Assembly: GCA_035297365.1 (NCBI GenBank)
Contig: DATGZA010000048.1
Location: 1-33,809 of the forward strand
Length of the DNA stretch: 33,809 nt
Reading direction: 5' to 3'
Source of the DNA: Nitrososphaeraceae archaeon
GTDB lineage: Archaea; Thermoproteota; Nitrososphaeria; Nitrososphaerales; Nitrososphaeraceae
In this document: in pieces, positions 1 through 22,550 of the stretch
Layout of the letters: every line of letters begins with the position of its first letter
Numbering within the stretch: the stretch's first letter is position 1
Program-made: the position numbers and the translations under genes
The notes under the pieces: model-generated
What the model was told of the DNA's origin: nothing
The model's database searches: none
What the model saw: only the letters and a program-made list of their open reading frames with translations

Positions 1-45
1 ATTTGTAAATTAAAAATTTTAATCCTATTTTCAAAAAATAATTAC

Positions 46-447
46 TTATTTGTTGTTGTAAGATCTTTCCAATTCTTTTACATAGTTGAAATAATTTTGA
101 TAATTAAAATAATTTTGAGTTGTATCATTGAAATATCTTTGTGCAAATTCAATATTTCTGGCAAATTTTTCTATATTTTCCAATATCATTTCATTTATGA
201 AATTTGTTCGGTTAGTGATATTATCTACAACATTTTTGTTAATTGTATCGTATGCTTCAAAAAATCTTTCCGGAATCCTTGAATTATTCCAGTAAAACTT
301 CGGTATATTTTCAAGAAATTGTCCATATGTTGATTGACAGGAATAGAATACGTTTTTTTGTAATTGGATATCATTTTCATATAATTTTCTAGTTTCATCT
401 TGAATTTTACTGATTGCTTTTGTAACCTCGTTTGTAATTGTAGACAT
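46..447 (-). CDS. Hypothetical helical Asn/Gln-rich protein resembling a multicopy Nitrososphaeraceae family
   Basis: ORF 46..459; ATG at 447 (MSTITNEV) is the more plausible start. Amphipathic helical sequence with a small C-terminal duplication QNYFNY-QNYFNY. Confidence 0.7.
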   Translation of the reverse strand: MSTITNEVTKAISKIQDETRKLYENDIQLQKNVFYSCQSTYGQFLENIPKFYWNNSRIPERFFEAYDTINKNVVDNITNRTNFINEMILENIEKFARNIEFAQRYFNDTTQNYFNYQNYFNYVKELERSYNNK

Positions 448-599
448 TAACATTAACACGTAATTTAGTGATATTAAGATTGATACTATTATCTATTTAT
501 TTTTGCTTTAATTATGTACAATACGGACCGCTTTTAATTTAACAAAATAGATTTAGCTATGAATGTTCTATTTCTAACCTATGATCAGTAGATTTCTTA

Positions 600-5290: not shown

Positions 5291-5499
5291 ATTTATTTCT
5301 GTAATTATATACTGAATTCTTATTTTTAAAGATATTGATAAATAGACTGACACCCTTAAAAGAAGATATTTTATAGTGCTAACTAGCCATATCCTAGCTT
5401 AGATTATAATAAAATTTAAGAAAATCTATATTATTACCTTATTAAGCATACACAACATGTTTAGTTCTATATTTTGTTGTTCCGAATATAGATATTAAT

Positions 5500-6170
5500 C
5501 AAATTCAAGGGAAATAAAAAACATTCAACATTTATTGTAATAGAATTTGTATTTGTTCTACAAGAAATCAAAGGTACTAGTAGTATTTAGAGATGAGAAA
5601 TGGAATCGTTTCTGTTTGTAATTTGATTCAGGAATTTGGTTCATATCAAATATATTGTAAAAGAAAAAGAGTATCGCATTTATTATAGATGAAACTCCTA
5701 TTCAGATTGGAAAACAATATTACTACCTGTTATGGATTTATGATGAACCAGTATTCATTATATGCTTAATATTCTTATTTTATATGATAAAAACATGCTT
5801 GTTGATGAAAATTAATTTGATCTGGTTGAGACGTGTGTAACATATTGTCTATTAGGAGGGTGCTAGTAAATGATATTCACAGAAATTTAATTTTGAACAA
5901 CTAAATATAGACAAAATTCTGCAGTGGAAAGGTGATCAATTGATATTTATGCATTATATAAATAAGAGAAACGAAATTTTGATCATCAGATCATTAATAA
6001 ATAACAGAGTATACCATTAACATATAACAGAGATATGATCTATCACAAGTATACAATTATACATGTATACAATTGGATCAAAATATCCATGTACAGGTAA
6101 GATACTAAAATAAAAAACAACATTTCATTCCTCAAAAGAGATGAATTATCCTAAAATTTACAGGAACGCT
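5500..6170 (+). mobile_element. IS6-family transposase remnant (pseudogene)
   Basis: Frameshifted pieces LVVFRDEK / VSVCNLIQEFGSYQIYCKRKRVS / AFIIDETPIQIGKQYYYLLWIYDEPV (IS6 DET motif) and C-terminal HVYNWI. Confidence 0.75.
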
Positions 6171-6450
6171 ATGAACTAATAGAGAAATTTATTGGCAAAT
6201 ATATTATATTTGTATTAAATTATTTATTAACATACTCTTTTGAATTATCGAAAATTCCCTCTACTAAAAATTACATAGTTTTAGAAGCATTCCTTAGTAT
6301 TTAATTAGTATTACAACAAAATAGGGAAATTTTAAAATATCTTATAGCATTTTCTCCAATTATATAGAGGATAGATTGATAAATTCAGTATCCATTATAT
6401 TTTGACAATGGAATTAATTCTGGCAGCCTGAATTATTTCTAGGAAACTAA

Positions 6451-7549: not shown

Positions 7550-8944
7550 ATGAGTACAAATAATGACCTAAAATATGAAGATCAAAAGCAACACCAAATT
7601 TTCATTAGTTATGCACATGATGACTCAAATGCGGCTAACCGCCTTTTTAATGATCTGAAAGAGTTTGAAAAAGAATTTAAATTAAAATTTTGGTTAGATA
7701 AAGACAGTCTTTTACCTGGTCAAAATTGGTCAGAAGTTATACAAAATGTTATTAAAGAAAGTAAATATTTTATTTTGCTATTATCTAAAAATGCGATTGA
7801 AAAAAATACATATGTACAAGAAGAATTAAGAATGGCCCTAGAAAAGGCTGAAAACCATCAAAAAGCTGAAATTTATATCATACCCATACGTTTAGATGAT
7901 TGTCAAATATCAGAATCGATCCAAAAGCTTCATGTTGTCGATTTATTCCCCGATTGGAAACATGGATTTGAAAAAGTATTATTGGCAATGAAAATTGGAG
8001 CAAAACCTAAAAAATTAACTGACGTTTATTGGGAGAATTTATTAGATGCTATAGATAGAAAAAATTGTATCCCCTTTATTGGAAGCTCGGCCCTTGAATT
8101 TTTTAATCAAGTGGATGATAATGCTTTTCTTACCATCGACGAATTAGCAAAGGAATGGGCAGAAAAATATGACTATCCGTTTGAAGCTCCATATGAATTA
8201 CCGAAAGTAGCCCAATATGTAGCAATAAATGAATTAGGTAACGAGATGGAAGCTAAGCAGAATGTCAGTACCAGATTTAGAAGAATGAAACCACCTAATT
8301 TTTTATCAAATAAATTTAATAAATCTCCACATGCAATTCTTGCCGAACTAAATTTACCTATTTACATCACAACAAATTATGATTTTTTTATGGAAGAGGC
8401 ATTAAAAAGTCAAGAAAAGAAACCGGTCAGTGGATTGTGTAGATGGAACGATGAATTGAAAAACTCAATTGAAGAGAGAACAGAACAAGATCAATATCGA
8501 CCTACAAAAGATGAACCATTGGTATTTCATTTCCATGGTTGCATAGATTATCCTGAATCATTGGTTTTAACCGAAAGAGATCATTTTGAATTTGTTATTT
8601 ATACCAATAAAGAAAGTGAGAAAGATATGATACCAACATTTTTGAGAAAAGCATTGCCTACTTCAACATTATTATTTATCGGATACAGATTAGATGATAT
8701 CAATTTCCGCTCAATATTTCAAGGGGCTCTCAGCTTCATGTCTAGTGTCCGTAAACGCAGAAATAGCATAGCTGTCATACAAATCCCAGTAGAAAATGAT
8801 TCTGTAAAAAAGGAAAAAGTTACTAAATATTTGGATCGCTACACAAAAGAGATGTTTGAAATAGTAATCTACTGGGGAGAACCAAATGATTTCATCGAAG
8901 AATTACAGACAAGATGGAAAGAATTCAAGGAAAATAAGAGTTAA
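7550..8944 (+). CDS. TIR domain - SIR2-like domain fusion protein (putative NADase effector)
   Basis: TIR: IFISYAHDD, WLDKDSLLPGQNW, FILLLSKN, YVQEEL (putative catalytic Glu). SIR2-like: CIPFIGSSA, YITTNYD, FHFHG, LLFIGYRLDDINF. Confidence 0.9.
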   Translation: MSTNNDLKYEDQKQHQIFISYAHDDSNAANRLFNDLKEFEKEFKLKFWLDKDSLLPGQNWSEVIQNVIKESKYFILLLSKNAIEKNTYVQEELRMALEKAENHQKAEIYIIPIRLDDCQISESIQKLHVVDLFPDWKHGFEKVLLAMKIGAKPKKLTDVYWENLLDAIDRKNCIPFIGSSALEFFNQVDDNAFLTIDELAKEWAEKYDYPFEAPYELPKVAQYVAINELGNEMEAKQNVSTRFRRMKPPNFLSNKFNKSPHAILAELNLPIYITTNYDFFMEEALKSQEKKPVSGLCRWNDELKNSIEERTEQDQYRPTKDEPLVFHFHGCIDYPESLVLTERDHFEFVIYTNKESEKDMIPTFLRKALPTSTLLFIGYRLDDINFRSIFQGALSFMSSVRKRRNSIAVIQIPVENDSVKKEKVTKYLDRYTKEMFEIVIYWGEPNDFIEELQTRWKEFKENKS

Positions 8945-8958
8945 GGGTTGACTGATAT

Positions 8959-11900
8959 ATGGACCGTATAGAGAACTATAAACACACACAAACTTCTAAC
9001 CAATTGAATAACATTGATAAAAAAAATCTCGAACCTTACATTGGTCCTCGTCCATTTTATAGGGATCCAGAGGATCAAAAAAGATTTTTTGGTAGAGATT
9101 ATGAAACTGAGGAAATTGTATCTCTAATTTCTAGCCATAAACTTGTTTTGATATATGCCCAATCTGGAGCTGGAAAGACGTCTATATTTAATGCACAAAT
9201 AATTCCCACTTTAGAACAAGATGGATTTGAGGTCTTACCTGTTATCAGATTAAAATCATCAAATATTATTACTAATTTGGACACGAATGATGTTAAAAAT
9301 ATATGCATTTTTAATAGCTTACAGAGCCTAAGGCCAGATCTTGATCCAAATATACTGAAGGATAAATCACTGACAGAATTCTTACAAGAATATTTTCCAA
9401 TAAAGAAAGATAAAAACGATAGGGAAATGCAACAAATATTAATATATGATCAATTGGAAGAAATCTTTGACATCCTTCCAAGAAATTGGAAAGAACAAAG
9501 AAAGGAGTTCTTTAAGGAAATTGTTCAGGTATTGAATGATATTACTCCGCTTCAAATAGTCTTTATCATTAGAGAGGACTATTTGGCACAATTAGATCCC
9601 TATAGTAATATCCTCCCTGAAAAATTAAGACCTCGTTTTAGACTTGAACGATTACGAGCGGATTCGGCTTTGTTAGCAATAAAAGGTCCACTAAAAAATG
9701 TTCCGAAAGATGTTATTCAAAATTATGAAGGAGACATAGATAAAGATATAAATGAGATAGTTCACGAATTGATGAAAATTCAAATAGAATATTTGCCTGG
9801 GAAAACACAACAAATAGAAGGAGAATTTATAGAACCAATTCAGCTTCAAGTCGTTCTCAAAAGATGGTGGGAAAAAATAACTAATCCTAATAGTAAAATC
9901 GTTAAACAAAATTTAATTTATGTTTCTGATGTAGATACTGCTTTGGAAGAATTCTATGAAGATGCTATAAATGATGTCATTAACAAAGACAAGATAAAAG
10001 AAAGCGAAATTAGAAAATGGTGTGAAGAAAATTTAATTACACAAGCAGGTACTAGAGGTATTGTTCATAAAGGTTTGGATTCAACAGCAGGCCTTAGAAA
10101 TGATTTAATTGATATTTTACAAAAGAAATATTTTATCAAGGAAAATCGTCGAGCAGGTGGGAGATGGTGTGAGTTAACTCATGATAGATTAATCAAACCA
10201 ATAATAACATCCAATCAAAAATGGAGAAAAGAACAGCAAAAAAGAAACAAATTAAACTTTGTAAAAATTTCAATACCTGTGGTAATTTCCATTATTGTGA
10301 TATTTGTAATTTTCGAGAATCTGTATCTAATACCAGTAGTTGAATCATTTTCTGCAGGCTATTTACCCTACATTCTGTCAGTTGATCAAAGTTCAGGATT
10401 AGTATATGTAACCAATCCTACATCGGACACGATCTCAGTTATAAATGGGAAAAAAAATGAACTTGTTAGGACTATAAACGTCACAGATAATCCGCTTGAT
10501 ATAGCTGTGAATTCACAAAATAATATAGTCTATGTTTCTATTCCAAAGAACCAAAGTATATCAGTGATACAGAGAGATAATTTAATGAACGTTTTAAATC
10601 CGTTCATCAAAAAGATACCAATAATTCAAGGAATTTTTGACTACAATATAACTAGCATACCCTTAAATTATTCACCTCTTTCGTTGGGACTCGACTCTGT
10701 TAATTCCAAATTATATGTAAGCTCCCAGAATCTGGTGTCTGTAATTGATACACATACTAATAAAATCAATAAAACTATAAAAATAGGATATACTCCATAC
10801 GAGGTCTCCGTTGATACGCAATCAAATAAAGTATATGTTGCTAATTATAAAGGTGATACTGTATCTGTTATAGATGGAACTAATTACAAGATATTACAAA
10901 ATATTACTGTGGGAAAAAATCCAAGTAGTATAGTATTTAATCCTAATGATAATAAAGTATATGTTGCTAATAGTGGAGATGATACTGTATCTGTTATAGA
11001 TGGAACTAATTACAAGATATTAAAAACAATTACTGTGGGAAAAAATCCAAGTAGCATGATATTTAATCCTAATGATAATAAAGTATATGTTGTTAATAAA
11101 GGAGATAACACAGTATCTGTTATAGATGAAAGAAATAATAATGATATAGCAGTAGCTATTTTCGAAGTTGGAAATAATCCTACGAGTATCAATATCAATG
11201 AAGATCAAAATATACTTTACATAGTTAACAATTTGGACAATAAACTAACAGCAATAGCTATGGGTAACAATTTAATGAAAAATATCATCAGTTTCTTTAA
11301 TATGGGTAACCAACCATCAGAATTTGTTATAAATAAAATTCCTGTTGGTATTCACCCATCAGGAATAGCTACAGATGCTGAAACCACAATGATATATGTG
11401 GCTAATACTGATTCCGATACTGTATCTGTTATAGATGGAACAAAAAATGAAATAAAAGAACAATTTAATGTAGGAGAAAAACCCCGAGACATAGATAGTA
11501 TAAATGATACGATATATGTAACCAATTCTCTTTCTAATACGGTATCAGTTATAGACAGAGAAAAAGGATCTATAAAGGATATTACCACTGAAGGTAAATA
11601 TCCTACGGGTTTGGCAGTTAATGAAAAAACTAATTTAGTATATGTTGCTAATACTGACTCAGATAATGTATCAGTAATAAATGGTACAACAGAGAAAGTT
11701 CAATCCACAATTCAAGTTGGAAATGCTCCAACCAGTATAGCATTTGATAAAAGTAATAATTTGATATATGTAACTAATTATGAAAATGATAACGTATCAG
11801 TAATAAATGGTACAACAGAGAAAGTTCAATCAACAATTCAAGTTGGAAATGGTCCAACCAGTATAGCATTTGATTCTGAAAAGAATTTAGTATACGTAGC

Positions 11901-12261
11901 TAATTATCTTGATGATACTATATCCGTAATAAATGCTACTGATAAGGTGAATTATGGAAATATAAATATTAGTAGAGATTTTCCAGGGAATGGTCCCACA
12001 GCAATAGCCGTTGATTCAAAAAATAATAAAATTTACGTATTAAATGTGTTCAGTGACAATATATCAGTTATAGATACCCGCATCATAACGGATTCATTAC
12101 AAGATAGTAAAACTATTAATGACAATCAGAAATATGTAATGTATGTTATTCCTGCAGGAGATTCTCCAAGTGATATATCGATTAGTTCTGAAAAATTATA
12201 TGTATCCAATCGAGGTAATAATATAGCAGACATATTGAATGTTCCAGTTTCTAATAGGTAA
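8959..12261 (+). CDS. nSTAND1-type STAND NTPase with a single TM helix and a double YVTN beta-propeller
   Basis: PYIGPRPF..FFGRD, Walker A AQSGAGKTS, Walker B ILIYDQLEE, IIREDYL, ELTHDRL; TM ISIPVVISIIVIFVIF (10267-10314); 14 YVTN-type blades. Starts 14 bp after the TIR-SIR2 stop. Confidence 0.9.
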   Translation: MDRIENYKHTQTSNQLNNIDKKNLEPYIGPRPFYRDPEDQKRFFGRDYETEEIVSLISSHKLVLIYAQSGAGKTSIFNAQIIPTLEQDGFEVLPVIRLKSSNIITNLDTNDVKNICIFNSLQSLRPDLDPNILKDKSLTEFLQEYFPIKKDKNDREMQQILIYDQLEEIFDILPRNWKEQRKEFFKEIVQVLNDITPLQIVFIIREDYLAQLDPYSNILPEKLRPRFRLERLRADSALLAIKGPLKNVPKDVIQNYEGDIDKDINEIVHELMKIQIEYLPGKTQQIEGEFIEPIQLQVVLKRWWEKITNPNSKIVKQNLIYVSDVDTALEEFYEDAINDVINKDKIKESEIRKWCEENLITQAGTRGIVHKGLDSTAGLRNDLIDILQKKYFIKENRRAGGRWCELTHDRLIKPIITSNQKWRKEQQKRNKLNFVKISIPVVISIIVIFVIFENLYLIPVVESFSAGYLPYILSVDQSSGLVYVTNPTSDTISVINGKKNELVRTINVTDNPLDIAVNSQNNIVYVSIPKNQSISVIQRDNLMNVLNPFIKKIPIIQGIFDYNITSIPLNYSPLSLGLDSVNSKLYVSSQNLVSVIDTHTNKINKTIKIGYTPYEVSVDTQSNKVYVANYKGDTVSVIDGTNYKILQNITVGKNPSSIVFNPNDNKVYVANSGDDTVSVIDGTNYKILKTITVGKNPSSMIFNPNDNKVYVVNKGDNTVSVIDERNNNDIAVAIFEVGNNPTSININEDQNILYIVNNLDNKLTAIAMGNNLMKNIISFFNMGNQPSEFVINKIPVGIHPSGIATDAETTMIYVANTDSDTVSVIDGTKNEIKEQFNVGEKPRDIDSINDTIYVTNSLSNTVSVIDREKGSIKDITTEGKYPTGLAVNEKTNLVYVANTDSDNVSVINGTTEKVQSTIQVGNAPTSIAFDKSNNLIYVTNYENDNVSVINGTTEKVQSTIQVGNGPTSIAFDSEKNLVYVANYLDDTISVINATDKVNYGNINISRDFPGNGPTAIAVDSKNNKIYVLNVFSDNISVIDTRIITDSLQDSKTINDNQKYVMYVIPAGDSPSDISISSEKLYVSNRGNNIADILNVPVSNR
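10825..11128 (+). repeat. Tandem 126-bp blade repeats (two full, one partial)
   Basis: Units start at 10825, 10951 and 11077; the first two match at 115/126 nt by manual count. Confidence 0.9.
11662..11874 (+). repeat. Second blade duplication, 126-bp period
   Basis: 11662-11748 and 11788-11874 match at 84/87 nt by manual count. Confidence 0.9.
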
Positions 12262-12336: not shown

Positions 12337-13290
12337 GTGCAATTTATCATAGTGTTAATTATCATTTTCCTATCCTTTGTAATATCATTCGAATCTAGCT
12401 TCATATACGAATCATATGGTGAAAAAGATTTAGTAATAGATGAAAAAGTACATATTACAATATCTAAAGATAATGAAACTCTAATTGTTCCCGCGAAAAT
12501 AGGAATTGATCCAAAGTTATGGAAAGACCATTCATTAGACTATTATAGTTTTGATCCTAATGGTAATCATAATACTTCTCCTTTAAACACAAAAAATTAT
12601 AATGGAACTATTTACATGGAATCAATTTACGATAGAGAGTTTACTTTACAAAATTTTTTAGATGTGTGGGGCTTTGACAAAACTAAAATAAAAAATATTT
12701 TTTGTAGTGAAAAACAATTATGCGATCTTGACTTAACTTTAACTGATGGTCAAAATTTAACATTAGAGCTCAAAAGTGATAAAACTCCAGATAATTTTAC
12801 GAAATATATACATCCAAAAATAACTTTTGAATATCCTTCTCAATGGAAAATAACTAATTCAATATTAGGGAATGAAACATTCTATGATGACTTGATTAAA
12901 GTATTCCCAAAGGAAGCAGAATATATGACTACTCCTTTCTTTTCTATACAAATCAAAAAATTAGATTCGAATATGACTACGTTAGACGAATATTATATGA
13001 ATAATTTACCTGATTTATTACAGGCAGATGAAAATACTTTTCCTCACTTTATACATTATAATAAAACTGAAATCGATGGTAATCTAGCATACCTTATATT
13101 ATTAGATACTACTTTAGTTGCAGAACCTGGTTCATCTGAAAAAGGCAATGAGATTACACAAAAAGAATCTCATATTTGGACCATAAAAGGTGGTTATTTT
13201 TATGATATATCATATAAGGCTTTGAATGGACTTTACAATGACTACTGGTCTATGCAAAAAAAAATCATTAATTCAATAAGAATCCAATAA
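12337..13290 (+). CDS. Exported or membrane-anchored protein with a C-terminal PsbP/Mog1-like domain
   Basis: GTG start; hydrophobic N-terminus; N-domain VPAKIGI..SPLNT..GTIYMES..FTLQNFLDVWG; C-domain FEYPSQWK..TEIDGNLAY..IWTIKGGYFYDISY..KIINSIRI. Confidence 0.75.
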   Translation: MQFIIVLIIIFLSFVISFESSFIYESYGEKDLVIDEKVHITISKDNETLIVPAKIGIDPKLWKDHSLDYYSFDPNGNHNTSPLNTKNYNGTIYMESIYDREFTLQNFLDVWGFDKTKIKNIFCSEKQLCDLDLTLTDGQNLTLELKSDKTPDNFTKYIHPKITFEYPSQWKITNSILGNETFYDDLIKVFPKEAEYMTTPFFSIQIKKLDSNMTTLDEYYMNNLPDLLQADENTFPHFIHYNKTEIDGNLAYLILLDTTLVAEPGSSEKGNEITQKESHIWTIKGGYFYDISYKALNGLYNDYWSMQKKIINSIRIQ

Positions 13291-13935: not shown

Positions 13936-14883
13936 TTATCTGCAGATCTCATCTAATTTTTCAATTATATCCCTGGCAACCACTACGGATTGATTTTCAA
14001 CAATTCTTGCCTTATCGTCATTACCTATTGACGTTAAGTTATTATATTCCCTAACTTTCCCTGATAAATTGATCAATAATAAATTCAAATCATTACTTTT
14101 AACTTCTCCAATTTTCTTCTTATTAATAGGATCTGAAAGAAAATGAAAAATAGGATCTGCGATTGTTTCAAATAATTCTCTAATAGTCATTTTCTGCATT
14201 AAAAGCTTTTGATGATTCTGTTTGAGTCCATCTACTAGGCTACATATATTAGGAGATTCATTTATTTTATCATCCCCAGATGGTTTATCACCACGAGGTA
14301 TGACTATTTTAGATGGATCCATACCATCCTTAACTTTCAGGTCCGGTGTCTTACTTTCTGGTATACCCAATAACTCTAATTGTACTTTTGCAAGTTCAAA
14401 TGCCTCTTTTACACTTTTTCCAAATCCAAGGGAAGAATAAAACGTCGATGCAAACTCTATTGCTGCCTTATCTGAGACAGCATTTGACATTCCGATAACA
14501 CAGTTAACATGTTTAGATATTGCTTTTGCTTGTTTTTCTGAATAACAAGCATTCAAGAAAACTAGATCTATTTTATGTCCTAAAATTTTGAACACATTTG
14601 ATAATGCAGAAGGTGGAACCTCTTCGATTTGACCAGTATTCTCGTTCTTAAATATCAATGAACTATTTGGACTACCATGTCCTGAAAAATGTAATATTTG
14701 AGGATCATAGTTAAGTAATTCTTCAATTAACCACTTGATAGAGATATCGTGTCTTTGTTCTAACTTGAAATCTGCTTTATTTGTGGCAGATCTCAGTTTT
14801 TCATTTATTATGTTACATTCCTTTATTAGCTCTAAAGGATCGGTCGCGGCAGGATTTGCAGAAAGAAATAAAATTGTTATCAT
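13936..14883 (-). CDS. CHAT (caspase HetF-associated) protease with a C-terminal helical adaptor-like domain
   Basis: ILFLSANP, ILHFSGHG (His), VFLNACYS (Cys), VIGMS..AIEFASTFYSSL. ATG at 14883 preferred over the TTG at 14928. Confidence 0.9.
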   Translation of the reverse strand: MITILFLSANPAATDPLELIKECNIINEKLRSATNKADFKLEQRHDISIKWLIEELLNYDPQILHFSGHGSPNSSLIFKNENTGQIEEVPPSALSNVFKILGHKIDLVFLNACYSEKQAKAISKHVNCVIGMSNAVSDKAAIEFASTFYSSLGFGKSVKEAFELAKVQLELLGIPESKTPDLKVKDGMDPSKIVIPRGDKPSGDDKINESPNICSLVDGLKQNHQKLLMQKMTIRELFETIADPIFHFLSDPINKKKIGEVKSNDLNLLLINLSGKVREYNNLTSIGNDDKARIVENQSVVVARDIIEKLDEICR

Positions 14884-15153
14884 AGCAAGTCTCTGCGCTA
14901 GATCTATAAAACCATTTCCTTTTAACAAACTTAAATCTGATGCAATTAAGCAAGATTGATAGTAGTTCTAAATTAAGTGATAGTGAAATGATATGTTTGA
15001 ATGTGAAATACTAAACCAGTGTTGATTACACTTTATTAAGTATCACATATTAAATTATTTATTATTTTATCATAACTGGAAATATTGTTCGTGTATGATT
15101 ATTTATTTATAAAAAGATTTAAAAGACTTACGAACAAGTATCTTTTAATATTT

Positions 15154-17058
15154 TTGTCAACAGATGAAAAATATATAGACATATTTTTAAAGAAAAAACA
15201 GGAATTAAAAGAACTAAACCAAAAATACATTATGGGACTAATTTCAATTGATGAATTCCATAATAAAATCAGCAATTTTCTGATTGATTTTACTGTTAAT
15301 ACAATAAATAAAGAATTTTTTGGCTACTTAAATATCGAATCCCTTAGCAGACAATTAGCAAATATCGCTACACTCTCATCTAATTTAAAAAAGTATAGAG
15401 AATTAACAGATGAAGAGAAGGAAGGACAGATAACAAAAGAACTTTCATTATCGAATTTTCGGATATTAGAAAGGCTTGAAAAATGTAGTGAATATTATAA
15501 ATCAGAGTTTCAGACTTCAGAGCAATCTACTTTAATAACCGAAATCAACACTATTCGGACACAAGCCGTAACTTCTGGTCCATCAGATAAACGCGATTTT
15601 GTACAAGAAAGTATTGGTATAAAAAAAGATAAAACCAGCGATCAAAAATCCACGTTAAATAAACTTTGTTTTGTGGATATGCCTTTTGGTAATAAAAAAG
15701 ATCCTTATACAGGAATCAAAGTAAATTTTGACCAAATATATGAAACTGCTATAAAACCGGCAATAACTGGTGCAAATCTAGAACCGTTGCGAGGAGATGA
15801 AGAAAATAGAGGCGGAATAATTCACCAAGCGATGTTTGCTAGACTTTTGCTATCTGAATATGTTATAGCTGACCTGACCACTGCAAATTCCAATGTATAC
15901 TATGAATTAGGCATTAGACATGCTGCTCGTCCATTTACAACTATCCTATTACATGGAAATTTACATCCTCTTCCATTTGATATTGCCCCAAATAGAACAA
16001 TTATGTATAACATTGAAAAGGATGGAACCATAAGTGAAAAATCCTGCCTTGATTTGAAAGAAGAAATTCTGGCTAGATTGGAGACAATCATTAGAGATGG
16101 AGCAAGATCAGATAGTCCTTTGTTTGAATTGATCAAGAATTACAAAAAAATAGACCTACCTCATGAATTGACAGATACCTTTCAAGATAGAATAAGATTA
16201 GAAAAAAATTTTAATGACCAATTGGAAAGGGCTAAATTACATAAAAATGACAGCGAAAAGGTAAAATCCTTACAGGAAATTAGATCCAGTCTTGGAAATA
16301 TTAAGGATAAAAATGATAACATACTTACAAGTCTCCTGCTTGCGTTTAGATCTGTTAGTGCATGGGAAGACATGATTCAATTATGTGAATCCTTTTCATA
16401 TGATTTAAGAAATTCATACATGATACAACAGCAAGAAGCATTTGCCTTAAACAGAAGAAATAGTGCTAACGACAGGGAAACAGCTATAAAAATTCTTGAG
16501 GAGCTAAGACAGATTTACGGTGACGATCCCGAAACTATGGGTCTACTCGGTAGAATATACAAGGATATGTTCAAAGACGCTAGGAAGAACAACGACCAAT
16601 TTAGTTCACTAGGATTTCTCGAGAAGGCCATAGATACATATACGAGGGGTTTTTACTCGGATCCACGTGACTATTACCCAGGAATAAATGCCGTCACACT
16701 TTTAATCGAAAAAGGTGGCAAGCAATCATATGATAAATCAAAAGAATTGATTACATCAATAAATCTTGCATTAGCTAGGAGAGGAGGACTTGATTCACAT
16801 AATTATTGGGATCTTGCAACAATTCTTGAAATAGCATGTATTGAAAACGATTCGGAGTTGATAGATAGGGTGTTGCCCAAAATTTCTATTTCAGCTAAGG
16901 AGACTTTCATGCCAGAAACAACACGAGACAATATAAAGATGCTAAGATATTCGTTACCTGGACTTTATGAAAAGGAAAAACAGGAATCATTGACTTCTAA
17001 CCTTGACAGGGTAATATCCTTTTTGGATTTTTATCACAAGAAATTGAAGAGCGGATGA
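15154..17058 (+). CDS. Helical N-domain + DRHyd (nucleoside deoxyribosyltransferase-like) + DUF4071/MAP3K TRAFs-binding TPR protein
   Basis: CFVDMPFG..FDQIYETAIKPAI..RGDEE..GIIHQAMFARL..VIADLTTANSNVYYELGIRHA; then AFALNRR, ETMGLLGRIYKD, YYPGINAVTL, YWDLAT. The ORF is open from 15085; TTG 15154 is my preferred start but is uncertain. Confidence 0.88.
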   Translation: MSTDEKYIDIFLKKKQELKELNQKYIMGLISIDEFHNKISNFLIDFTVNTINKEFFGYLNIESLSRQLANIATLSSNLKKYRELTDEEKEGQITKELSLSNFRILERLEKCSEYYKSEFQTSEQSTLITEINTIRTQAVTSGPSDKRDFVQESIGIKKDKTSDQKSTLNKLCFVDMPFGNKKDPYTGIKVNFDQIYETAIKPAITGANLEPLRGDEENRGGIIHQAMFARLLLSEYVIADLTTANSNVYYELGIRHAARPFTTILLHGNLHPLPFDIAPNRTIMYNIEKDGTISEKSCLDLKEEILARLETIIRDGARSDSPLFELIKNYKKIDLPHELTDTFQDRIRLEKNFNDQLERAKLHKNDSEKVKSLQEIRSSLGNIKDKNDNILTSLLLAFRSVSAWEDMIQLCESFSYDLRNSYMIQQQEAFALNRRNSANDRETAIKILEELRQIYGDDPETMGLLGRIYKDMFKDARKNNDQFSSLGFLEKAIDTYTRGFYSDPRDYYPGINAVTLLIEKGGKQSYDKSKELITSINLALARRGGLDSHNYWDLATILEIACIENDSELIDRVLPKISISAKETFMPETTRDNIKMLRYSLPGLYEKEKQESLTSNLDRVISFLDFYHKKLKSG

Positions 17059-17211: not shown

Positions 17212-17916
17212 ATGTCTAATGTTAATTGTGATTTCGATGGTGATGGACGTGCTGAGATTTTGGTCACAAGTCCCTGGGGAATAGGAATCCTCAAACTTTC
17301 TGGCAGTACACTAACTGCTCCTATGATGGCACCCAATGGAACAAGGTTTGGTGGTTGGTTGTTAAACACTGCCGATAACTATTTCACCATAGGTGAAGAG
17401 TGTATTAGACTGCATGTAAAAATCCTTACAAATCCAAGTATTAGTATTGAAAACATGATTGTATCCATGCAACTTGCGTATGAATCTGTTGGAATACGTG
17501 TTCATAGAGTAAGTACAGAAAATCTGAATCTACCAAATTTAAACGATGTAGATGTCGGGAATTGTACTCTCGGTTCAGTTACTCAAGAACAAATTGACCT
17601 ATTTGCTAATCGAAATAATGCTGGACCGAATGATGTGGTTGTTTATTTTGTAAGGTCTACAGTACCACCGTTCAACGGTTGTGCTTCTCATCCGGCCGGT
17701 AGACCCGGTGCAGTTGTAGCTAGAGGTGCAACCATTTGGACATTGGCACATGAGGTAGGACACACATTGGGCCTTTTCCATATCAATGATAACAATCGAT
17801 TAATGACTGGAAATGGCACATCCAATATAACTAATCCTCCTCCTGACCTAATTTCACAGGAAGTATTAACTATGAGGAAAAGTAATTTATCTCATAAAAG
17901 CGGAGAGGGATTATAA
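17212..17916 (+). CDS. Metzincin zinc metalloprotease with an N-terminal FG-GAP-like repeat unit
   Basis: DFDGDGRAEILV Ca-binding-type motif; HEVGHTLGLFH followed by the Met-turn RLM; no signal peptide. Confidence 0.85.
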   Translation: MSNVNCDFDGDGRAEILVTSPWGIGILKLSGSTLTAPMMAPNGTRFGGWLLNTADNYFTIGEECIRLHVKILTNPSISIENMIVSMQLAYESVGIRVHRVSTENLNLPNLNDVDVGNCTLGSVTQEQIDLFANRNNAGPNDVVVYFVRSTVPPFNGCASHPAGRPGAVVARGATIWTLAHEVGHTLGLFHINDNNRLMTGNGTSNITNPPPDLISQEVLTMRKSNLSHKSGEGL

Positions 17917-18368
17917 TGTCAGTAACCATGAATGATGTATTAGCATATCTGGAACCAGATGAACCTAGTTATGCACAAGCTGCGAAGCTTGGTCCAGATG
18001 CGCTGCCCTATCTTAAAGAGATTATCGATAAACCAGATGTAATGCTAGCTTCAAAAGCTGCATATCTAGTCAGCTTAATTAAAAGTGATAAATCTATTTC
18101 TATTTTAGAGCACGCAGCACGCAATAAAGAACCAATAGTAAGAATCGCAGTTGCGTCAGGAATTCGTAATATTTCAGAAAGAGATGCAAACATCTTGCTA
18201 GACGAGTTTATAGAAGATAAAGATGTTGGAGTGCGTAAAGTAACGCTTAAATCAGTTGCAAAATTCAAGTCTGATTTAATAGCATCAAAAGTCCAAAAGT
18301 TACAAGAAAGCGATCCAGAACCCTATATTCGTGAATTGGCTTCTAATGTAATAGAGAAAATGAAATAA
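17916..18368 (+). CDS. HEAT-repeat protein
   Basis: LGPDALPYL, EPIVRIAVA, DKDVGVRKVTL, DPEPYIRELA; TAATG overlap with the upstream protease. Confidence 0.85.
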   Translation: MSVTMNDVLAYLEPDEPSYAQAAKLGPDALPYLKEIIDKPDVMLASKAAYLVSLIKSDKSISILEHAARNKEPIVRIAVASGIRNISERDANILLDEFIEDKDVGVRKVTLKSVAKFKSDLIASKVQKLQESDPEPYIRELASNVIEKMK

Positions 18369-18915
18369 CTTTTTTTGAAGTACACCGTGAAGAAATACTG
18401 CCTGAATTTGTAGATTGTATAATAATAAATTGCAACAAGATAGCAAAAACTGATATAATGAATTGTAAATACGGCAGGTAAAAATTTTCTTTATATTACC
18501 TAGACATAGTAACAGGAAAAAGGGAAAAAAATTACTGGTGGAATAAACGAATCGCTATGTAAGAAAGAATAGAATAATGTAAAAAAAATTTGGAGAGTCT
18601 AATAGCAAAGTTGTTTTTGATGAGAGAAACTATCTGTTATGAGGTGGCAGCTAGCATATTGTACGTGGCATATAATGCATGAGTTAATTGGTTGGTATAC
18701 CTCTAATAGATTTTTTCGGCATTGTTCATCTCCGTTGAGATAGCTAGTGATATTATTGTAAAAAAGTAAAAAGAAAAGAAGGGTGGAAAGAAAAATTTAG
18801 TAATATCTACATTCGATACAATTATTTTCACGACAGAGGAAACAAATTATAAGAATTTTACATCATATCTAAAATCTAAATATACTTTTATTTTGCACAT
18901 ACAATTTTTCCTATT

Positions 18916-18935
18916 ATTTTTCGGCGTCGAAAAAT
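18916..18935. repeat. Near-perfect palindrome, copy 3 of the TTTTTCGGCGCCGAAAAA motif
   Basis: atttttcggcgtcgaaaaat, 70 bp upstream of the carboxypeptidase ATG and next to a TATA-like tataaata. Confidence 0.8.
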
Positions 18936-19005
18936 TTGCTATAAATAAATTCCTGTAATTTAAACAATCAAAATACTTATGAATTAGGAATCTAAATAAA
19001 ATTTA

Positions 19006-20373
19006 ATGACAACGAGATTTTTTGTTCAAATTATAGCAAAGAATAAACAGCAATTAATGGATTTACAGAAATTCGAGCTCGACCTATTTCAATCTACAGG
19101 AAAATCCATTGAGGATAAGAAGTTCTCAATTGACGGGTTAATTACATTAGAAGACGTAAATAAATTGGTACAAAATGGCTACAAGGTAATGGTAAAGAAA
19201 GAATCAATGAAGAGAACTCCTGCTATAGATGAAACCATGTCTTTTGAGGAATGGAGCGAAGTAGTCAAAAAAGAGGAAAAGGAAGAAAAGGAAGAGGGTC
19301 TTAGAGAAGCAAAGCCAGAAAAAGCACTCACATTTAAAGGATATTTGACTTCAAAGGGTATACATTCTGCATTACAGTATTTAGCTAAAACATATCCATC
19401 CATAGTACAATTGATATCTCTACCAGAAAAGACATATGAAGGATATATGTCAAAAGCAATAAAAATAGGTGTAAAAAACGCGACTCCCAAAAACGGCATT
19501 CTTTTCTTGGGAGGAGTACATGCGCGCGAAATTCTGAATCCTGACCTTTTGGTAAAACTAACACTAGATTTATGTCAAGCATATTCATCAAATAATGGTC
19601 TGACATATGGCGGAAAATCGTTTACTGCCGAAGATGTAAAACAGATAGTGGATAATCTAGAGCTTTTTGTTTTTCCATTGGTAAATCCCGATGGTAGATC
19701 ATTCGTACAGGCACCCAATGGAGATGTATGGTGGAGAAAGAACCGAAATCCTAATCCCGGTCTCGAACAGAAAGGTGTAGATCTAAACAGAAATTATGAT
19801 TTTCTTTGGCAGAGTGGAATAGGTACAAGCACAAATTCTACTACTGAAATTTATAAAGGGAAAGAACCAGCTTCAGAAAAAGAAACAAAGAATGTTCTCC
19901 ATTTGATAAACAAATACAAAAACATCACCTGTGTATTTGACATTCATTCCTATTCAGAGGTTATTCTCTATCCATGGGGTGACGATGACATCCAGACAGA
20001 AGATCCAGATATGAATTTTGGAAATCCCGATTATGATGGGTCACGCGGTATCCCTGGAGACAGTATTTACAAAGAGTATATCCACAAGAAAGATCTAAAT
20101 TGGTATGAGAGTACAGGTAAAAGGATAAGAAACGCAATTGCAGCAGTACAAGGAACTGTTTATGAAGCTCAGCACAGCATTGGCCTATATCCGACATCCG
20201 GTAGCTGTGATGATTATATATACAGTTTAAGGTACAATGGTGCCAATAGAGAAATAAAGGGCTTTACTATAGAAACAGCTAAATTATTTCAACCTACGTA
20301 CGAAGACGCAATAAAAGTTATGTCTGAAGTATCAGCAGGACTGGTTGAAGTATGTAAAATACACCTTGAATAA
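19006..20373 (+). CDS. M14 zinc carboxypeptidase (carboxypeptidase T-like)
   Basis: GVHARE, NPDG, WRKNR, GVDLNRNY, DIHSYS, YPTSGSCDDY, FTIE; N-terminal pro-like region; no signal peptide; T-rich tract after the stop. Confidence 0.93.
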   Translation: MTTRFFVQIIAKNKQQLMDLQKFELDLFQSTGKSIEDKKFSIDGLITLEDVNKLVQNGYKVMVKKESMKRTPAIDETMSFEEWSEVVKKEEKEEKEEGLREAKPEKALTFKGYLTSKGIHSALQYLAKTYPSIVQLISLPEKTYEGYMSKAIKIGVKNATPKNGILFLGGVHAREILNPDLLVKLTLDLCQAYSSNNGLTYGGKSFTAEDVKQIVDNLELFVFPLVNPDGRSFVQAPNGDVWWRKNRNPNPGLEQKGVDLNRNYDFLWQSGIGTSTNSTTEIYKGKEPASEKETKNVLHLINKYKNITCVFDIHSYSEVILYPWGDDDIQTEDPDMNFGNPDYDGSRGIPGDSIYKEYIHKKDLNWYESTGKRIRNAIAAVQGTVYEAQHSIGLYPTSGSCDDYIYSLRYNGANREIKGFTIETAKLFQPTYEDAIKVMSEVSAGLVEVCKIHLE

Positions 20374-20846
20374 CTTTTTTCTTCTCTTTTTGATTATAAA
20401 ATAGGGAAATATTATGGATTGATTTGAGCTGATATCACAAATAAGGGAAATTACTTTTTTCATGTGATTGTGTATAGTAAATTGAGTACAAAATATTAAA
20501 TTCATTTTATTTTCCTATTATGTTCCAATATTCAAATTGGATTTTTTTTAAATTTAATTCATAAATTTTCCTTGTCTTCAGACATGTTATTAATAATGAT
20601 ATCATAATACAGATGATTTATTGTCGTTCAAACCTGTGATTTGTTCTCTCTTACAGAGCTTTCCTAGTTTTTTGATTAATGATATTGACAATGTGACAGG
20701 GATTTTATACGTATTCAATAATAATTGTGTGATAAGGAATGATAATTATCTGATATTAATAATAATTATTATAATTATCTATTACAATTATCATAGGATA
20801 ATAATATTCGATGTGAACGAGGGAAATACAAATATCAAGTTTGGGT

Positions 20847-21686
20847 TCAGTAAACACGTCTTGGTTGCTTATGAATATAAATTGGAATGGGGATATTCCT
20901 CCTCAACTCATTAGAATTCAGATCCAAAAACATATCTTTATCAAAGTCAAAGGTACTCAGTTCTTTCCTTACTTTTTTTAATAATGAAGTAAATTCATAG
21001 GAATTGTTAAGTGAATCAATCATAATAAATTTCTTGAAGCCATTGTAGGGCACACCTTGCACCGATAGCATTTGATCCAAAATATTTGTGTCCAAATGAA
21101 ATTCAGATCGATGTTTATAAAGATAGGCATTTGCAAAGGATTCCTCTATACAATGAATTGAGTTAAATGAATCTAGATAAAAATCAATATAATATTTATT
21201 GAAAATATTTTTATTGTTTTTGAGTTCAATATTACTTATAAAACATTCCAAGATATAATGAAAAAATCCATGTAAATACAATATTAAAAACGAAGAAGTT
21301 AAAGATTCTTTTTTATTAAAAGGAACATTGTTTTTAAGGTAAGATGAAAGTTTCATCCAGCTAGAAAATCTCAAATGGATACCCCATTTTGTTCTAGGAA
21401 TAAAATGAAATGGCTGATACCACATACAGAAACTCTTTTCAAAAATAAAGTCTCTCTGAATAGCATCAGATCTGGTGCTATTTCTAGAAATATCTTGTAT
21501 AACTGACGAGTTCAATACAGAATCCCATGTTATTTGAATTTTCTCAAAGATTTGATCAGATTCAGAAAAGTACCACTCAGGAGTAATTAATTCAGAAACT
21601 ATGTTTGGTGATTGAATACTGTTAAGATTATTTGTTTTATTCAAACTGTCAATTGAAAAAATTAACTCTTCTAAATCTGAAATCAT
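20847..21686 (-). CDS. Hypothetical zincin-like protein with a degenerate HExxH motif
   Basis: WYQPFHF..WGIHLR..YLHGFFHYILE..IEESFANAY: HxxxH plus a downstream EE helix, with Gly at the catalytic Glu position. Confidence 0.65.
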   Translation of the reverse strand: MISDLEELIFSIDSLNKTNNLNSIQSPNIVSELITPEWYFSESDQIFEKIQITWDSVLNSSVIQDISRNSTRSDAIQRDFIFEKSFCMWYQPFHFIPRTKWGIHLRFSSWMKLSSYLKNNVPFNKKESLTSSFLILYLHGFFHYILECFISNIELKNNKNIFNKYYIDFYLDSFNSIHCIEESFANAYLYKHRSEFHLDTNILDQMLSVQGVPYNGFKKFIMIDSLNNSYEFTSLLKKVRKELSTFDFDKDMFLDLNSNELRRNIPIPIYIHKQPRRVY

Positions 21687-21818
21687 TTTATGTTAAAACT
21701 GTATATTTTAAAAAAAGATTCTTTGCAGAAAATGGTGTCGACATTATTAACAATAGCTATATTAAATAAGATGTAAAAAAAGTATAGTTTTCGATGCGAA
21801 TCCCAGATTCAACTAAAA

Positions 21819-22550
21819 TCAAGTTTTTATACGAGGATACTGTTCACTCATAAATTTTTTGTCCAGTTGAGAAGGGGTCGTGTTTCTTGCGCCTATAGCT
21901 ACATGATTTGTAGTAAATTCTGCAGGTATTGGATAAAGCATGATCGACTTTGGGTCAAATTTTGTGAAATTGGTAATAGTTTTGCTGTACCTTGCAAACA
22001 GATTATGATCTATGTCTTTTTTTGACCAATTATTAGGAGGTCCCATGTAATATTTGTAAACTGCCTCCTTATCCCAGGGAATATTTCCGGCAGGATTTTG
22101 ATGTTCATGGATTGCCCCAAGTGCATGACCAAATTCATGTATTACAACTCTGGAATATTCGTCATCAGGGGTATTAGGTTTTAGCCATCCGTAGTTCATG
22201 GTGCGTTCATTTTTAGGAATATCTAAAGCATCTCGGCCAATGTAAGACCATGATCCGTCTCCCATATTAAATCCGATCCTAATTTCCGCATCACCGCTGG
22301 GAACGAAAACTAAATTTACATTCGCGTATTCCATCCACGATAATGCATATTTTTTTACCTTTTGTTGGACATCTGATTGTCCTTCCATAAACCTGACCCG
22401 GATCGTAGCCCCAACATCCCACATCTTTTCTCTAATTAAGGCCATTCGTGCAGATGCACCAGATCGTGTTGCATCGGCGGATGGTCCACTCTTTGTATAT
22501 TTCGTCGGTTCTTTTCCTGGTATCAATTTATCTATGCAAACTTGTACCAT
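21819..22550 (-). CDS. Metzincin zinc metalloprotease (astacin/M12A-like)
   Basis: SWSYIG, HEFGHALGAIHEHQ, Met-turn DPKSIMLY; no signal peptide. Confidence 0.92.
   Translation of the reverse strand: MVQVCIDKLIPGKEPTKYTKSGPSADATRSGASARMALIREKMWDVGATIRVRFMEGQSDVQQKVKKYALSWMEYANVNLVFVPSGDAEIRIGFNMGDGSWSYIGRDALDIPKNERTMNYGWLKPNTPDDEYSRVVIHEFGHALGAIHEHQNPAGNIPWDKEAVYKYYMGPPNNWSKKDIDHNLFARYSKTITNFTKFDPKSIMLYPIPAEFTTNHVAIGARNTTPSQLDKKFMSEQYPRIKT

Follow-up and report, generated by a model that had tools for sequence, protein, structure and literature searches.

A helical domain family shared by adjacent CHAT protease and DUF4071/TPR-S genes in Nitrososphaeraceae, with features of an effector-associated adaptor

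The stretch of DNA analysed here, called the window throughout, comprises the 33,809 nucleotides of contig DATGZA010000048.1 (assembly GCA_035297365.1) from a Nitrososphaeraceae archaeon. It is AT-rich, with a GC content of 31 %, and contains two genes standing head to head, one for a CHAT protease on the minus strand and one for a DUF4071/TPR-S protein on the plus strand. The subject of this report is a domain of about 100 residues found at the C-terminus of the first product (the CHAT-C copy) and at the N-terminus of the second (the DUF-N copy). The features of the pair are as follows.

13936-14883, minus strand: CHAT (caspase-like) protease gene, 315 amino acids (aa) from the ATG at 14883 chosen by gene callers; the longest open reading frame (ORF) begins at TTG 14928 and encodes 330 aa.
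13939-14244, minus strand: CHAT-C, putative C-terminal adaptor domain, about 100 aa, helical; profile match at E 6.6e-39, and match to a hidden Markov model (HMM) of 72 sequences at E 1.3e-31.
14245-14376, minus strand: polar linker joining the putative adaptor domain to the CHAT domain, read from the sequence.
14377-14823, minus strand: CHAT catalytic domain, Pfam PF12770, residues 36-184 of the 330-aa ORF.
14884-15084, no strand: AT-rich intergenic spacer of the divergent pair, presumed to hold the promoters of both genes.
15085-17058, plus strand: gene for a protein with putative adaptor, DRHyd/TIR-like, MAP3K_TRAF_bd (DUF4071) and TPR-S parts, an ORF of 657 aa.
15196-15498, plus strand: DUF-N, putative N-terminal adaptor domain, about 100 aa, helical; profile match over 15196-15489 at E 6.7e-30, and match to the same 72-sequence HMM at E 1.5e-17 over residues 41-141 of the open frame.
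15499-15690, plus strand: polar linker between the putative adaptor and the enzyme part, read from the sequence, with no Pfam or PADLOC family match.

The CHAT protein matches PF12770 at 39.2 bits against a Pfam cut-off of 24 (E 7.2e-10), a match to the class above its cut-off, and the PADLOC 'chat' model at E 8.6e-12. Its sequence contains HFSGHG and FLNACYS motifs, which we take, from what is generally known of clan CD proteases, to hold the His/Cys dyad. The 657-aa protein matches PF13281 over residues 272-621 (E 5.2e-43; 147.9 bits, cut-off 24.1) and the TPR-S family PF20308 over residues 427-540 (E 5.9e-27; 94.7 bits, cut-off 27.6), and a PADLOC model for TIR-type effectors matches residues 203-309 at E 9.9e-9. 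Its combination of MAP3K_TRAF_bd/DUF4071 and TPR recalls the N-terminal module of ASK1 (MAP3K5), but unlike ASK1 it has no kinase domain, carries the N-terminal adaptor instead and is paired with a CHAT protease gene. A preliminary description of the locus, made from the sequence, had placed a polar linker between domain and enzyme in both proteins; polar or proline-rich sequence is indeed seen there, and in the homologues P0031 and L084 a proline-rich stretch occupies the position of the CHAT linker.

The same description had aligned the two termini without gaps over the segments 13954-14226 and 15205-15477, which the domain extents listed above slightly exceed. Both segments translate exactly as quoted, and the hand count of 20 identities in 91 ungapped positions was reproduced. 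So low an identity, together with genome-wide single-sequence E-values of only 0.03-0.045, is what might be expected if the similarity were a chance or compositional artefact of two Lys/Asn/Ile-rich helical segments encoded in AT-rich DNA. When both sequences were shuffled 5000 times, however, no shuffle reached the Smith-Waterman score of 78 given by the real pair (shuffled mean 29.6 +/- 5.6; p about 1e-5 from a Gumbel fit to the shuffle scores), and the gapless full-length score was 66 against -68 +/- 21 for shuffles. BLASTP of CHAT-C against DUF-N gave 27.7 bits, 21 of 68 residues identical and E 4e-6 (for a single comparison). In a six-frame search of the 2.52-Mb genome, the sole other match of each segment was its neighbouring partner (E 0.0445 and 0.0336). 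Comparison of a nine-sequence CHAT-C profile with a seven-sequence DUF-N profile by hhalign returned a probability of 97.8 % and E 1.3e-12 over 95 gapless columns, and an HMM of 62 metagenomic members, built with both the CHAT-C and the DUF-N subfamilies removed, recovered both copies from the six-frame translation of the window (E 8.1e-25 and 4.6e-12). Both copies also belong to a family of 85 members, described below, with conserved motifs in register. Because of the shuffles, the family, the profile-profile comparison and the leave-out HMM, we regard the chance explanation as refuted, its remaining probability being negligible. The C-terminus of the CHAT protein and the N-terminus of the DUF4071 protein are homologous, non-enzymatic, all-helical domains of about 100 residues.

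A profile search for relatives, one of the checks that the preliminary description had proposed, showed that the two copies do not stand alone. A seed profile of six sequences (from the window and from genomes G096, G053 and G051) was searched against 1.84 billion protein cluster representatives and matched 85 of them at E <= 1e-3, 48 of these at E <= 1e-10; in the longer proteins nearly the full profile was matched. The domain is N-terminal in 34 representatives and C-terminal in 23, and the other 28 are proteins of at most 163 aa (24 of at most 140 aa, either stand-alone domains or fragments, and 4 of 143-163 aa). According to Pfam, the fusion partners are NB-ARC/NACHT STAND NTPases (7 of 85), CHAT (6), SIR2 (3), TIR (2) and, in one representative each, Peptidase_C14, DUF4071 with TPR-S, a KAP NTPase, TPR, PKD, Big_9 with pYEATS, and DUF7352; 57 of the 85 have no Pfam family at all. 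These partners bear on the suggestion that the domain might serve the CHAT protease as a substrate or be a regulatory pro-domain, for instance a cap that inhibits until the linker is cleaved, and that both proteins have it because one protease controls them both. Exposed polar linkers adjoin the domain, and in the window, G096, L080 and L084 a caspase-like protease makes up one half of the pair, all of which such a role would accommodate. The domain is, however, also carried by STAND, KAP, SIR2 and TIR proteins (known from their protein sequences alone), and no conserved cleavage motif turned up, although no search aimed at one was made; we consider a pro-domain or substrate role very improbable.

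Among genomes, the profile search found the family in 4 of 238 species-representative Nitrososphaeraceae genomes, with a fifth match (G037) that was partial and weak. Among 400 further genomes sampled from the phylum, besides the source genome G000, there was no family member apart from one marginal partial match of 20.5 bits, which is regarded as chance (401 genomes with G000). The 10 family members whose origin was checked were all metagenomic. Matches at E 0.01-1, of which single-sequence searches returned many, were likewise treated as chance and did not come back in the profile search; those in G168 and G077 did not rise above chance level. A recurrent protein of about 303 aa (G082, G043 and others) was rejected as a member, its match region being internal, the protein of another type and the profile failing to recover it. 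A scan of contigs with a narrower alignment and one peptide pattern matched 50 stretches and confirmed none, a narrow test that is not evidence of absence. Outside the domain, no Pfam family was found on the C-terminal part of P0087 or on the N-terminal 230 aa or so of the G096 and G053 proteins.

That the domain is unannotated, as first described, agrees with our searches, since Pfam, NCBIfam and PADLOC gave no match on it. A loose resemblance of its second half to EAD11, one of the effector-associated domains (EADs), had also been put forward and did not hold up: in a genome-wide six-frame HMMER search, the EAD11 model PF19964 had no match on the contig at E <= 10, and neither had the models of EAD1, EAD6 and EAD8 (PF19955, PF19958 and PF19961). 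The remaining EAD models were covered through whole-library hmmscans. A scan of 24 domain-only members against Pfam at E <= 10 gave no family that more than 2 of them matched; of the 38 families matched, 25 were listed, and these included neither an EAD nor a Death family. At the same threshold P0001 had no Pfam match and P0002 matched only SHOCT. In the 85 representatives no Pfam family lay on the domain, apart from one sub-threshold, overlapping match to Snapin/Pallidin. No description of the domain was found in the open literature, taken without the supplementary alignments of two eLife papers on EADs. As judged by HMMER sequence matching, the domain belongs to a family without a match to the EAD models tested or elsewhere in the libraries searched; a distant link to a named EAD may still exist.

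AlphaFold2 models of the two copies were both confident (CHAT-C: predicted local distance difference test score 93.8, predicted template modelling score 0.83; DUF-N: 93.7 and 0.82). The predicted folds agree, in keeping with the common domain first proposed, and place the same five helices at residues 2-13, 19-35, 37-43, 45-70 and 74-99, four of them long and one short. We read this predicted fold as a four-helix bundle of up-down arrangement to which one more helix is added at the N-terminus. An exhaustive structure aligner returned the same top chains for both models, namely the four-helix bundles of p130Cas (FAT-like), vinculin, talin, TLNRD1 and alpha-catenin. The superpositions of FAT/vinculin type reached Z 11.1-11.6, against a helical-bundle background of up to about 13, with a root-mean-square deviation of 1.9-2.3 A over 94-95 of 100 residues, and sequence identity between the domain and the FAT, p130Cas CCH and vinculin-talin-alpha-catenin bundles was only 4-14 %. 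Because these Z values lie within the background of helical bundles, we do not read the likeness as kinship. Foldseek found no match to the CHAT-C model in the Protein Data Bank (PDB) at E <= 0.001, the best being E 0.89. The ESM Atlas yielded unnamed clusters only and its recognition value was low, and the top match of a PDB sequence search, S100-A16 at E 0.002 over a partial stretch, was judged to be noise.

With Death-fold adaptors (DD, DED, CARD and Pyrin; bDLD1-5) the domain would share its proposed role, that of a small helical module joining a caspase-like protease to signalling enzymes. The Death fold is a six-helix bundle, whereas our models are up-down bundles of four long helices and a short one. 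No Death-fold chain occurred among the 50 structural matches listed for either model, which does not exclude a distant relation.

The bundles of FAT, p130Cas, vinculin and talin are protein-docking modules that bind helical peptide motifs. Their place as nearest structural neighbours (Z 11.1-11.6, 1.9-2.0 A over 95 residues) lends some weight to the idea that the two copies each dock onto some third partner that they share, whether a hub protein, an invader component or a helical peptide motif, so that the adjacency of the copies would reflect shared targeting. Other observations fit this idea too: the paired copies are divergent, at about 20 % identity, G053 holds a single copy, and the family includes domain-bearing STAND and KAP proteins. 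On the other side, generic bundles give structural matches in the same range, G000 yielded neither a third copy nor a candidate hub, and the recurrent pairing of two particular subfamilies, to which we turn below, is more simply explained by cognate contact. Docking onto a third partner is in our judgement unlikely, although it comes closest of the alternatives considered here to the explanation that we prefer.

Neighbouring genes that each bear the domain were found in four different pair architectures.

Architecture 1, divergent: CHAT-adaptor and adaptor-DUF4071/TPR-S, in the window, L078, L079, L081, L082 and L083 (CHAT identity 98-76 %).
Architecture 2, divergent: adaptor with a caspase-like protein (557 aa) and a 342-aa protein with an N-terminal part without family followed by the adaptor, in G096:C79.
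Architecture 3, tandem: CHAT-adaptor followed by a second CHAT-like protein with adaptor, in L080.
Architecture 4, tandem: a P0087-like protein (96 % identical to P0087 over the 200 aa present) upstream of CHAT-adaptor, in L084.

The caspase-like protein of G096 gave a weak match to NF047832 (E 0.0018). P0087 and the DUF4071 protein of the window have only the N-terminal adaptor in common, at 40 % identity over 117 aa, so that an adaptor of the DUF-N subfamily stays beside the CHAT-C gene though the enzyme fused to it changes. Both G000 and G096 contain exactly two copies of the domain, and in each genome the two adjoin. This conserved adjacency has to be set against the proposal that the domain is a self-association module, through which each protein dimerises or polymerises separately, the genes being linked functionally in some other way. 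Oligomerisation is common among helical bundles, the domain is terminal and sits on flexible linkers, and many members are short or have a single known partner domain, all of which fit such a module. It would leave unexplained, however, why domain-bearing genes adjoin in four architectures and why the sole two copies in G000 and in G096 are neighbours. We hold separate self-association to be improbable, more so than docking onto a third partner.

A tree of 83 domain sequences (109 alignment columns, quick search, many forks unresolved) contained a CHAT-C clade of 10 rows, with a support of 95 in the Shimodaira-Hasegawa-like approximate likelihood ratio test, and a DUF-N clade of 7 rows with a support of 100, the latter including DUF4071, a caspase (P0096) and P0087. 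Other clades held SIR2 mixed with TIR proteins, or STAND proteins. Among the orthologous loci of the window and L081-L083, the CHAT-C copy was 74-78 % identical and the DUF-N copy only 49-56 %; to judge from these sequences, the two adaptor partners evolve at unequal rates.

The adaptor principle itself is known from EADs and Death-like adaptors, and the two articles cited here place EADs mainly in multicellular bacteria (Kaur et al. 2020, PMC7159879; Kaur et al. 2021, PMC8195603). EAD1-EAD12 are presented there as adaptor domains of NTP-dependent conflict systems, a class defined by architecture, in which neighbouring copies are each other's closest relatives (Kaur et al. 2020, PMC7159879). 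Measured against these descriptions, the preliminary reading of the domain as EAD-like stood in part. What stood was the architecture, with terminal fusions both to switches (STAND 7, KAP 1) and to effectors (CHAT, C14, TIR, SIR2 and DUF4071), another copy encoded by the gene next door (in the window, G096:C79, L080, L084, L078, L079 and L081-L083; G053 and G051 are exceptions), and effectors swapped between relatives behind a constant adaptor. The character of the domain also conforms, as it is small (about 100 aa), non-catalytic and all-helical, and no enzyme family matches it. The family departs from that reading in that neighbouring copies, unlike those of the EADs as so described, come from different subfamilies and are not closest relatives, and in that no NTPase core with the domain was found in G000. 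The taxonomic setting differs as well, since in genomes the domain was found only in Nitrososphaeraceae archaea.

We think it fairly probable that the domain defines a family of small helical-bundle adaptors that behave like EADs, and that by means of two cognate subfamilies it serves to attach the CHAT protease to the DRHyd/TPR-S protein. Flexible linkers join the domain to the C-terminal end of the caspase-like CHAT protease and to the N-terminal end of the DRHyd/TIR-like and TPR-S (ASK1-like) protein, and most likely the two copies bind each other directly. The CHAT protease and the TPR-bearing protein would thereby be coupled, and a single event of sensing or switching could deploy both enzymatic activities; the name that Pfam gives to TPR-S suggests that the TPR part is the sensor. 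Recruitment of the CHAT protease to the ASK1-like module, as first proposed, is what we infer from this arrangement. We propose cognate pairing because the paired copies are two distinct subfamilies that recur together, and the contact would probably be a pairing of two subfamilies within one fold family, not self-association of identical modules. The preliminary description had spoken of homotypic binding; if the copies bind, the contact, given their sequences, spans two different subfamilies and is not strictly homotypic.

Several observations weigh against docking of this kind. Adjoining copies always fall into different clades, where EADs would lead one to expect closest relatives, and at 18.6-29.2 % identity (median of 2556 representative pairs 23.3 %, interquartile range 20.2-26.7 %) they do not resemble each other more than random pairs from the family do. 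No charge complementarity was found between the CHAT-C and DUF-N subfamilies. In the source genome no MoxR-vWA, GTPase or STAND core bears the domain, and because no NTPase of G000 carries it, the core-plus-effector layout of the EAD systems is absent there. G053 has its single copy with no other in the roughly 0.9 kb upstream, and G051 has one degraded copy only. As regards structure, the agreement between the two models is not independent because their input alignments overlap heavily, and the modelled fold is that of a generic helical bundle.

Further loci add detail on family members and on CHAT orthologues. The degraded copy of G051 lies in L070 (G051:C633, 6863-8501), where the first helix of the adaptor and a start codon are both missing and stops surround the copy. 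A TIR domain follows downstream; its reading frame breaks off and is carried on by a 319-aa ORF in a different frame. Either the copy is a pseudogene or the assembly is in error here. In L086 (167-1375) and L087 (646-1851) there are CHAT orthologues whose protease part is 67-69 % identical and in which a receiver-like domain replaces the adaptor (for L086, the one scanned, Response_reg at E 1.8e-6, just below the cut-off); from the sequences, the C-terminal module seems to have been exchanged. Next to the adaptor pair of G096 (L063, G096:C79, 1-6206) stands a TPR-repeat gene (1-549, minus strand) that the contig end truncates, and about 2 kb from the pair lie a C2H2 zinc-finger protein and a transposase of IS4/5 type split over two frames (5473-6206). 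A guess that the upstream fragment of L080 is transposase-like was dropped for want of a Pfam match.

Where the DUF4071 gene of the window begins is ambiguous, the candidates being TTG 15085, GTG 15091 and TTG 15154. GTG 15091 is the start used for P0033, TTG 15154 lines up with residue 1 of P0087, and the orthologue P0068 begins at a Met whose counterpart in the window reads ACG. In P0034 the gene caller began at an internal Met and so cut the first helix off the adaptor domain. Orthologues in L081 and L083 lack this Met and conserve the upstream helix, and for this reason we take the first helix of the DUF-N copy to be coding. Short contigs from four RNA libraries, mostly at least 99 % alike, cover parts of both genes of the pair; as such libraries can contain DNA and the contigs show neither ends nor strand, this is a weak hint of transcription. 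The locus is present in DNA runs of at least 10 soil and related studies.

The pair lies in what resembles a defence island. A gene for a TIR + SIR2_2 fusion (7550-8944, plus strand) is followed 14 bases on by a gene for an nSTAND1 NTPase with beta-propeller/NHL repeats (8959-12261, plus strand), and together these probably form a separate two-gene defence system; neither of the two proteins has the adaptor domain. Between the nSTAND1 and CHAT genes, a gene at 12337-13290 (plus strand) encodes a protein of 317 aa that has a hydrophobic segment at its N-terminus and gives a sub-threshold PsbP-like match (E 4.2e-5). Beyond the DUF4071 gene there is a cluster of peptidase type at 17212-22550, in which an FG-GAP and zinc-metallopeptidase-like gene (17212-17916) abuts a HEAT-repeat gene (17916-18368), followed by an M14 carboxypeptidase gene (19006-20373) and an astacin-like gene (21819-22550, minus strand).

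Adaptor domains matter in that they reveal the wiring by which separate immune genes form a single pathway, and naming a new adaptor makes the partners of many otherwise uninterpretable genes readable from sequence. The pairing of distinct subfamilies is possibly the new feature of this family. The locus offers a compact two-gene test case, with two domains of about 100 residues, for the idea that EADs pair directly, which is still largely untested, and adds to that idea the twist that pairing may join distinct subfamilies. More tentatively, and with the odds in our view against it, the family might constitute an adaptor system of soil ammonia-oxidising archaea in its own right, unrelated to the Death fold: one four-helix-bundle family split into cognate pairing subfamilies, the CHAT-C type with the DUF-N type and the caspase type of G096 with the 342-aa type, that would serve as a wiring code for archaeal signalosomes made up of caspase-like proteases, DRHyd/TIR/SIR2 enzymes and STAND/KAP switches. 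If true, this would be an independent invention of immune scaffolding in the style of death domains. In the Nitrososphaeraceae, abundant nitrifiers of soil whose defence systems have been little studied, the family connects a caspase-like protease with an ASK1-like DRHyd/TPR module, TIR, SIR2 and STAND/KAP NTPases.

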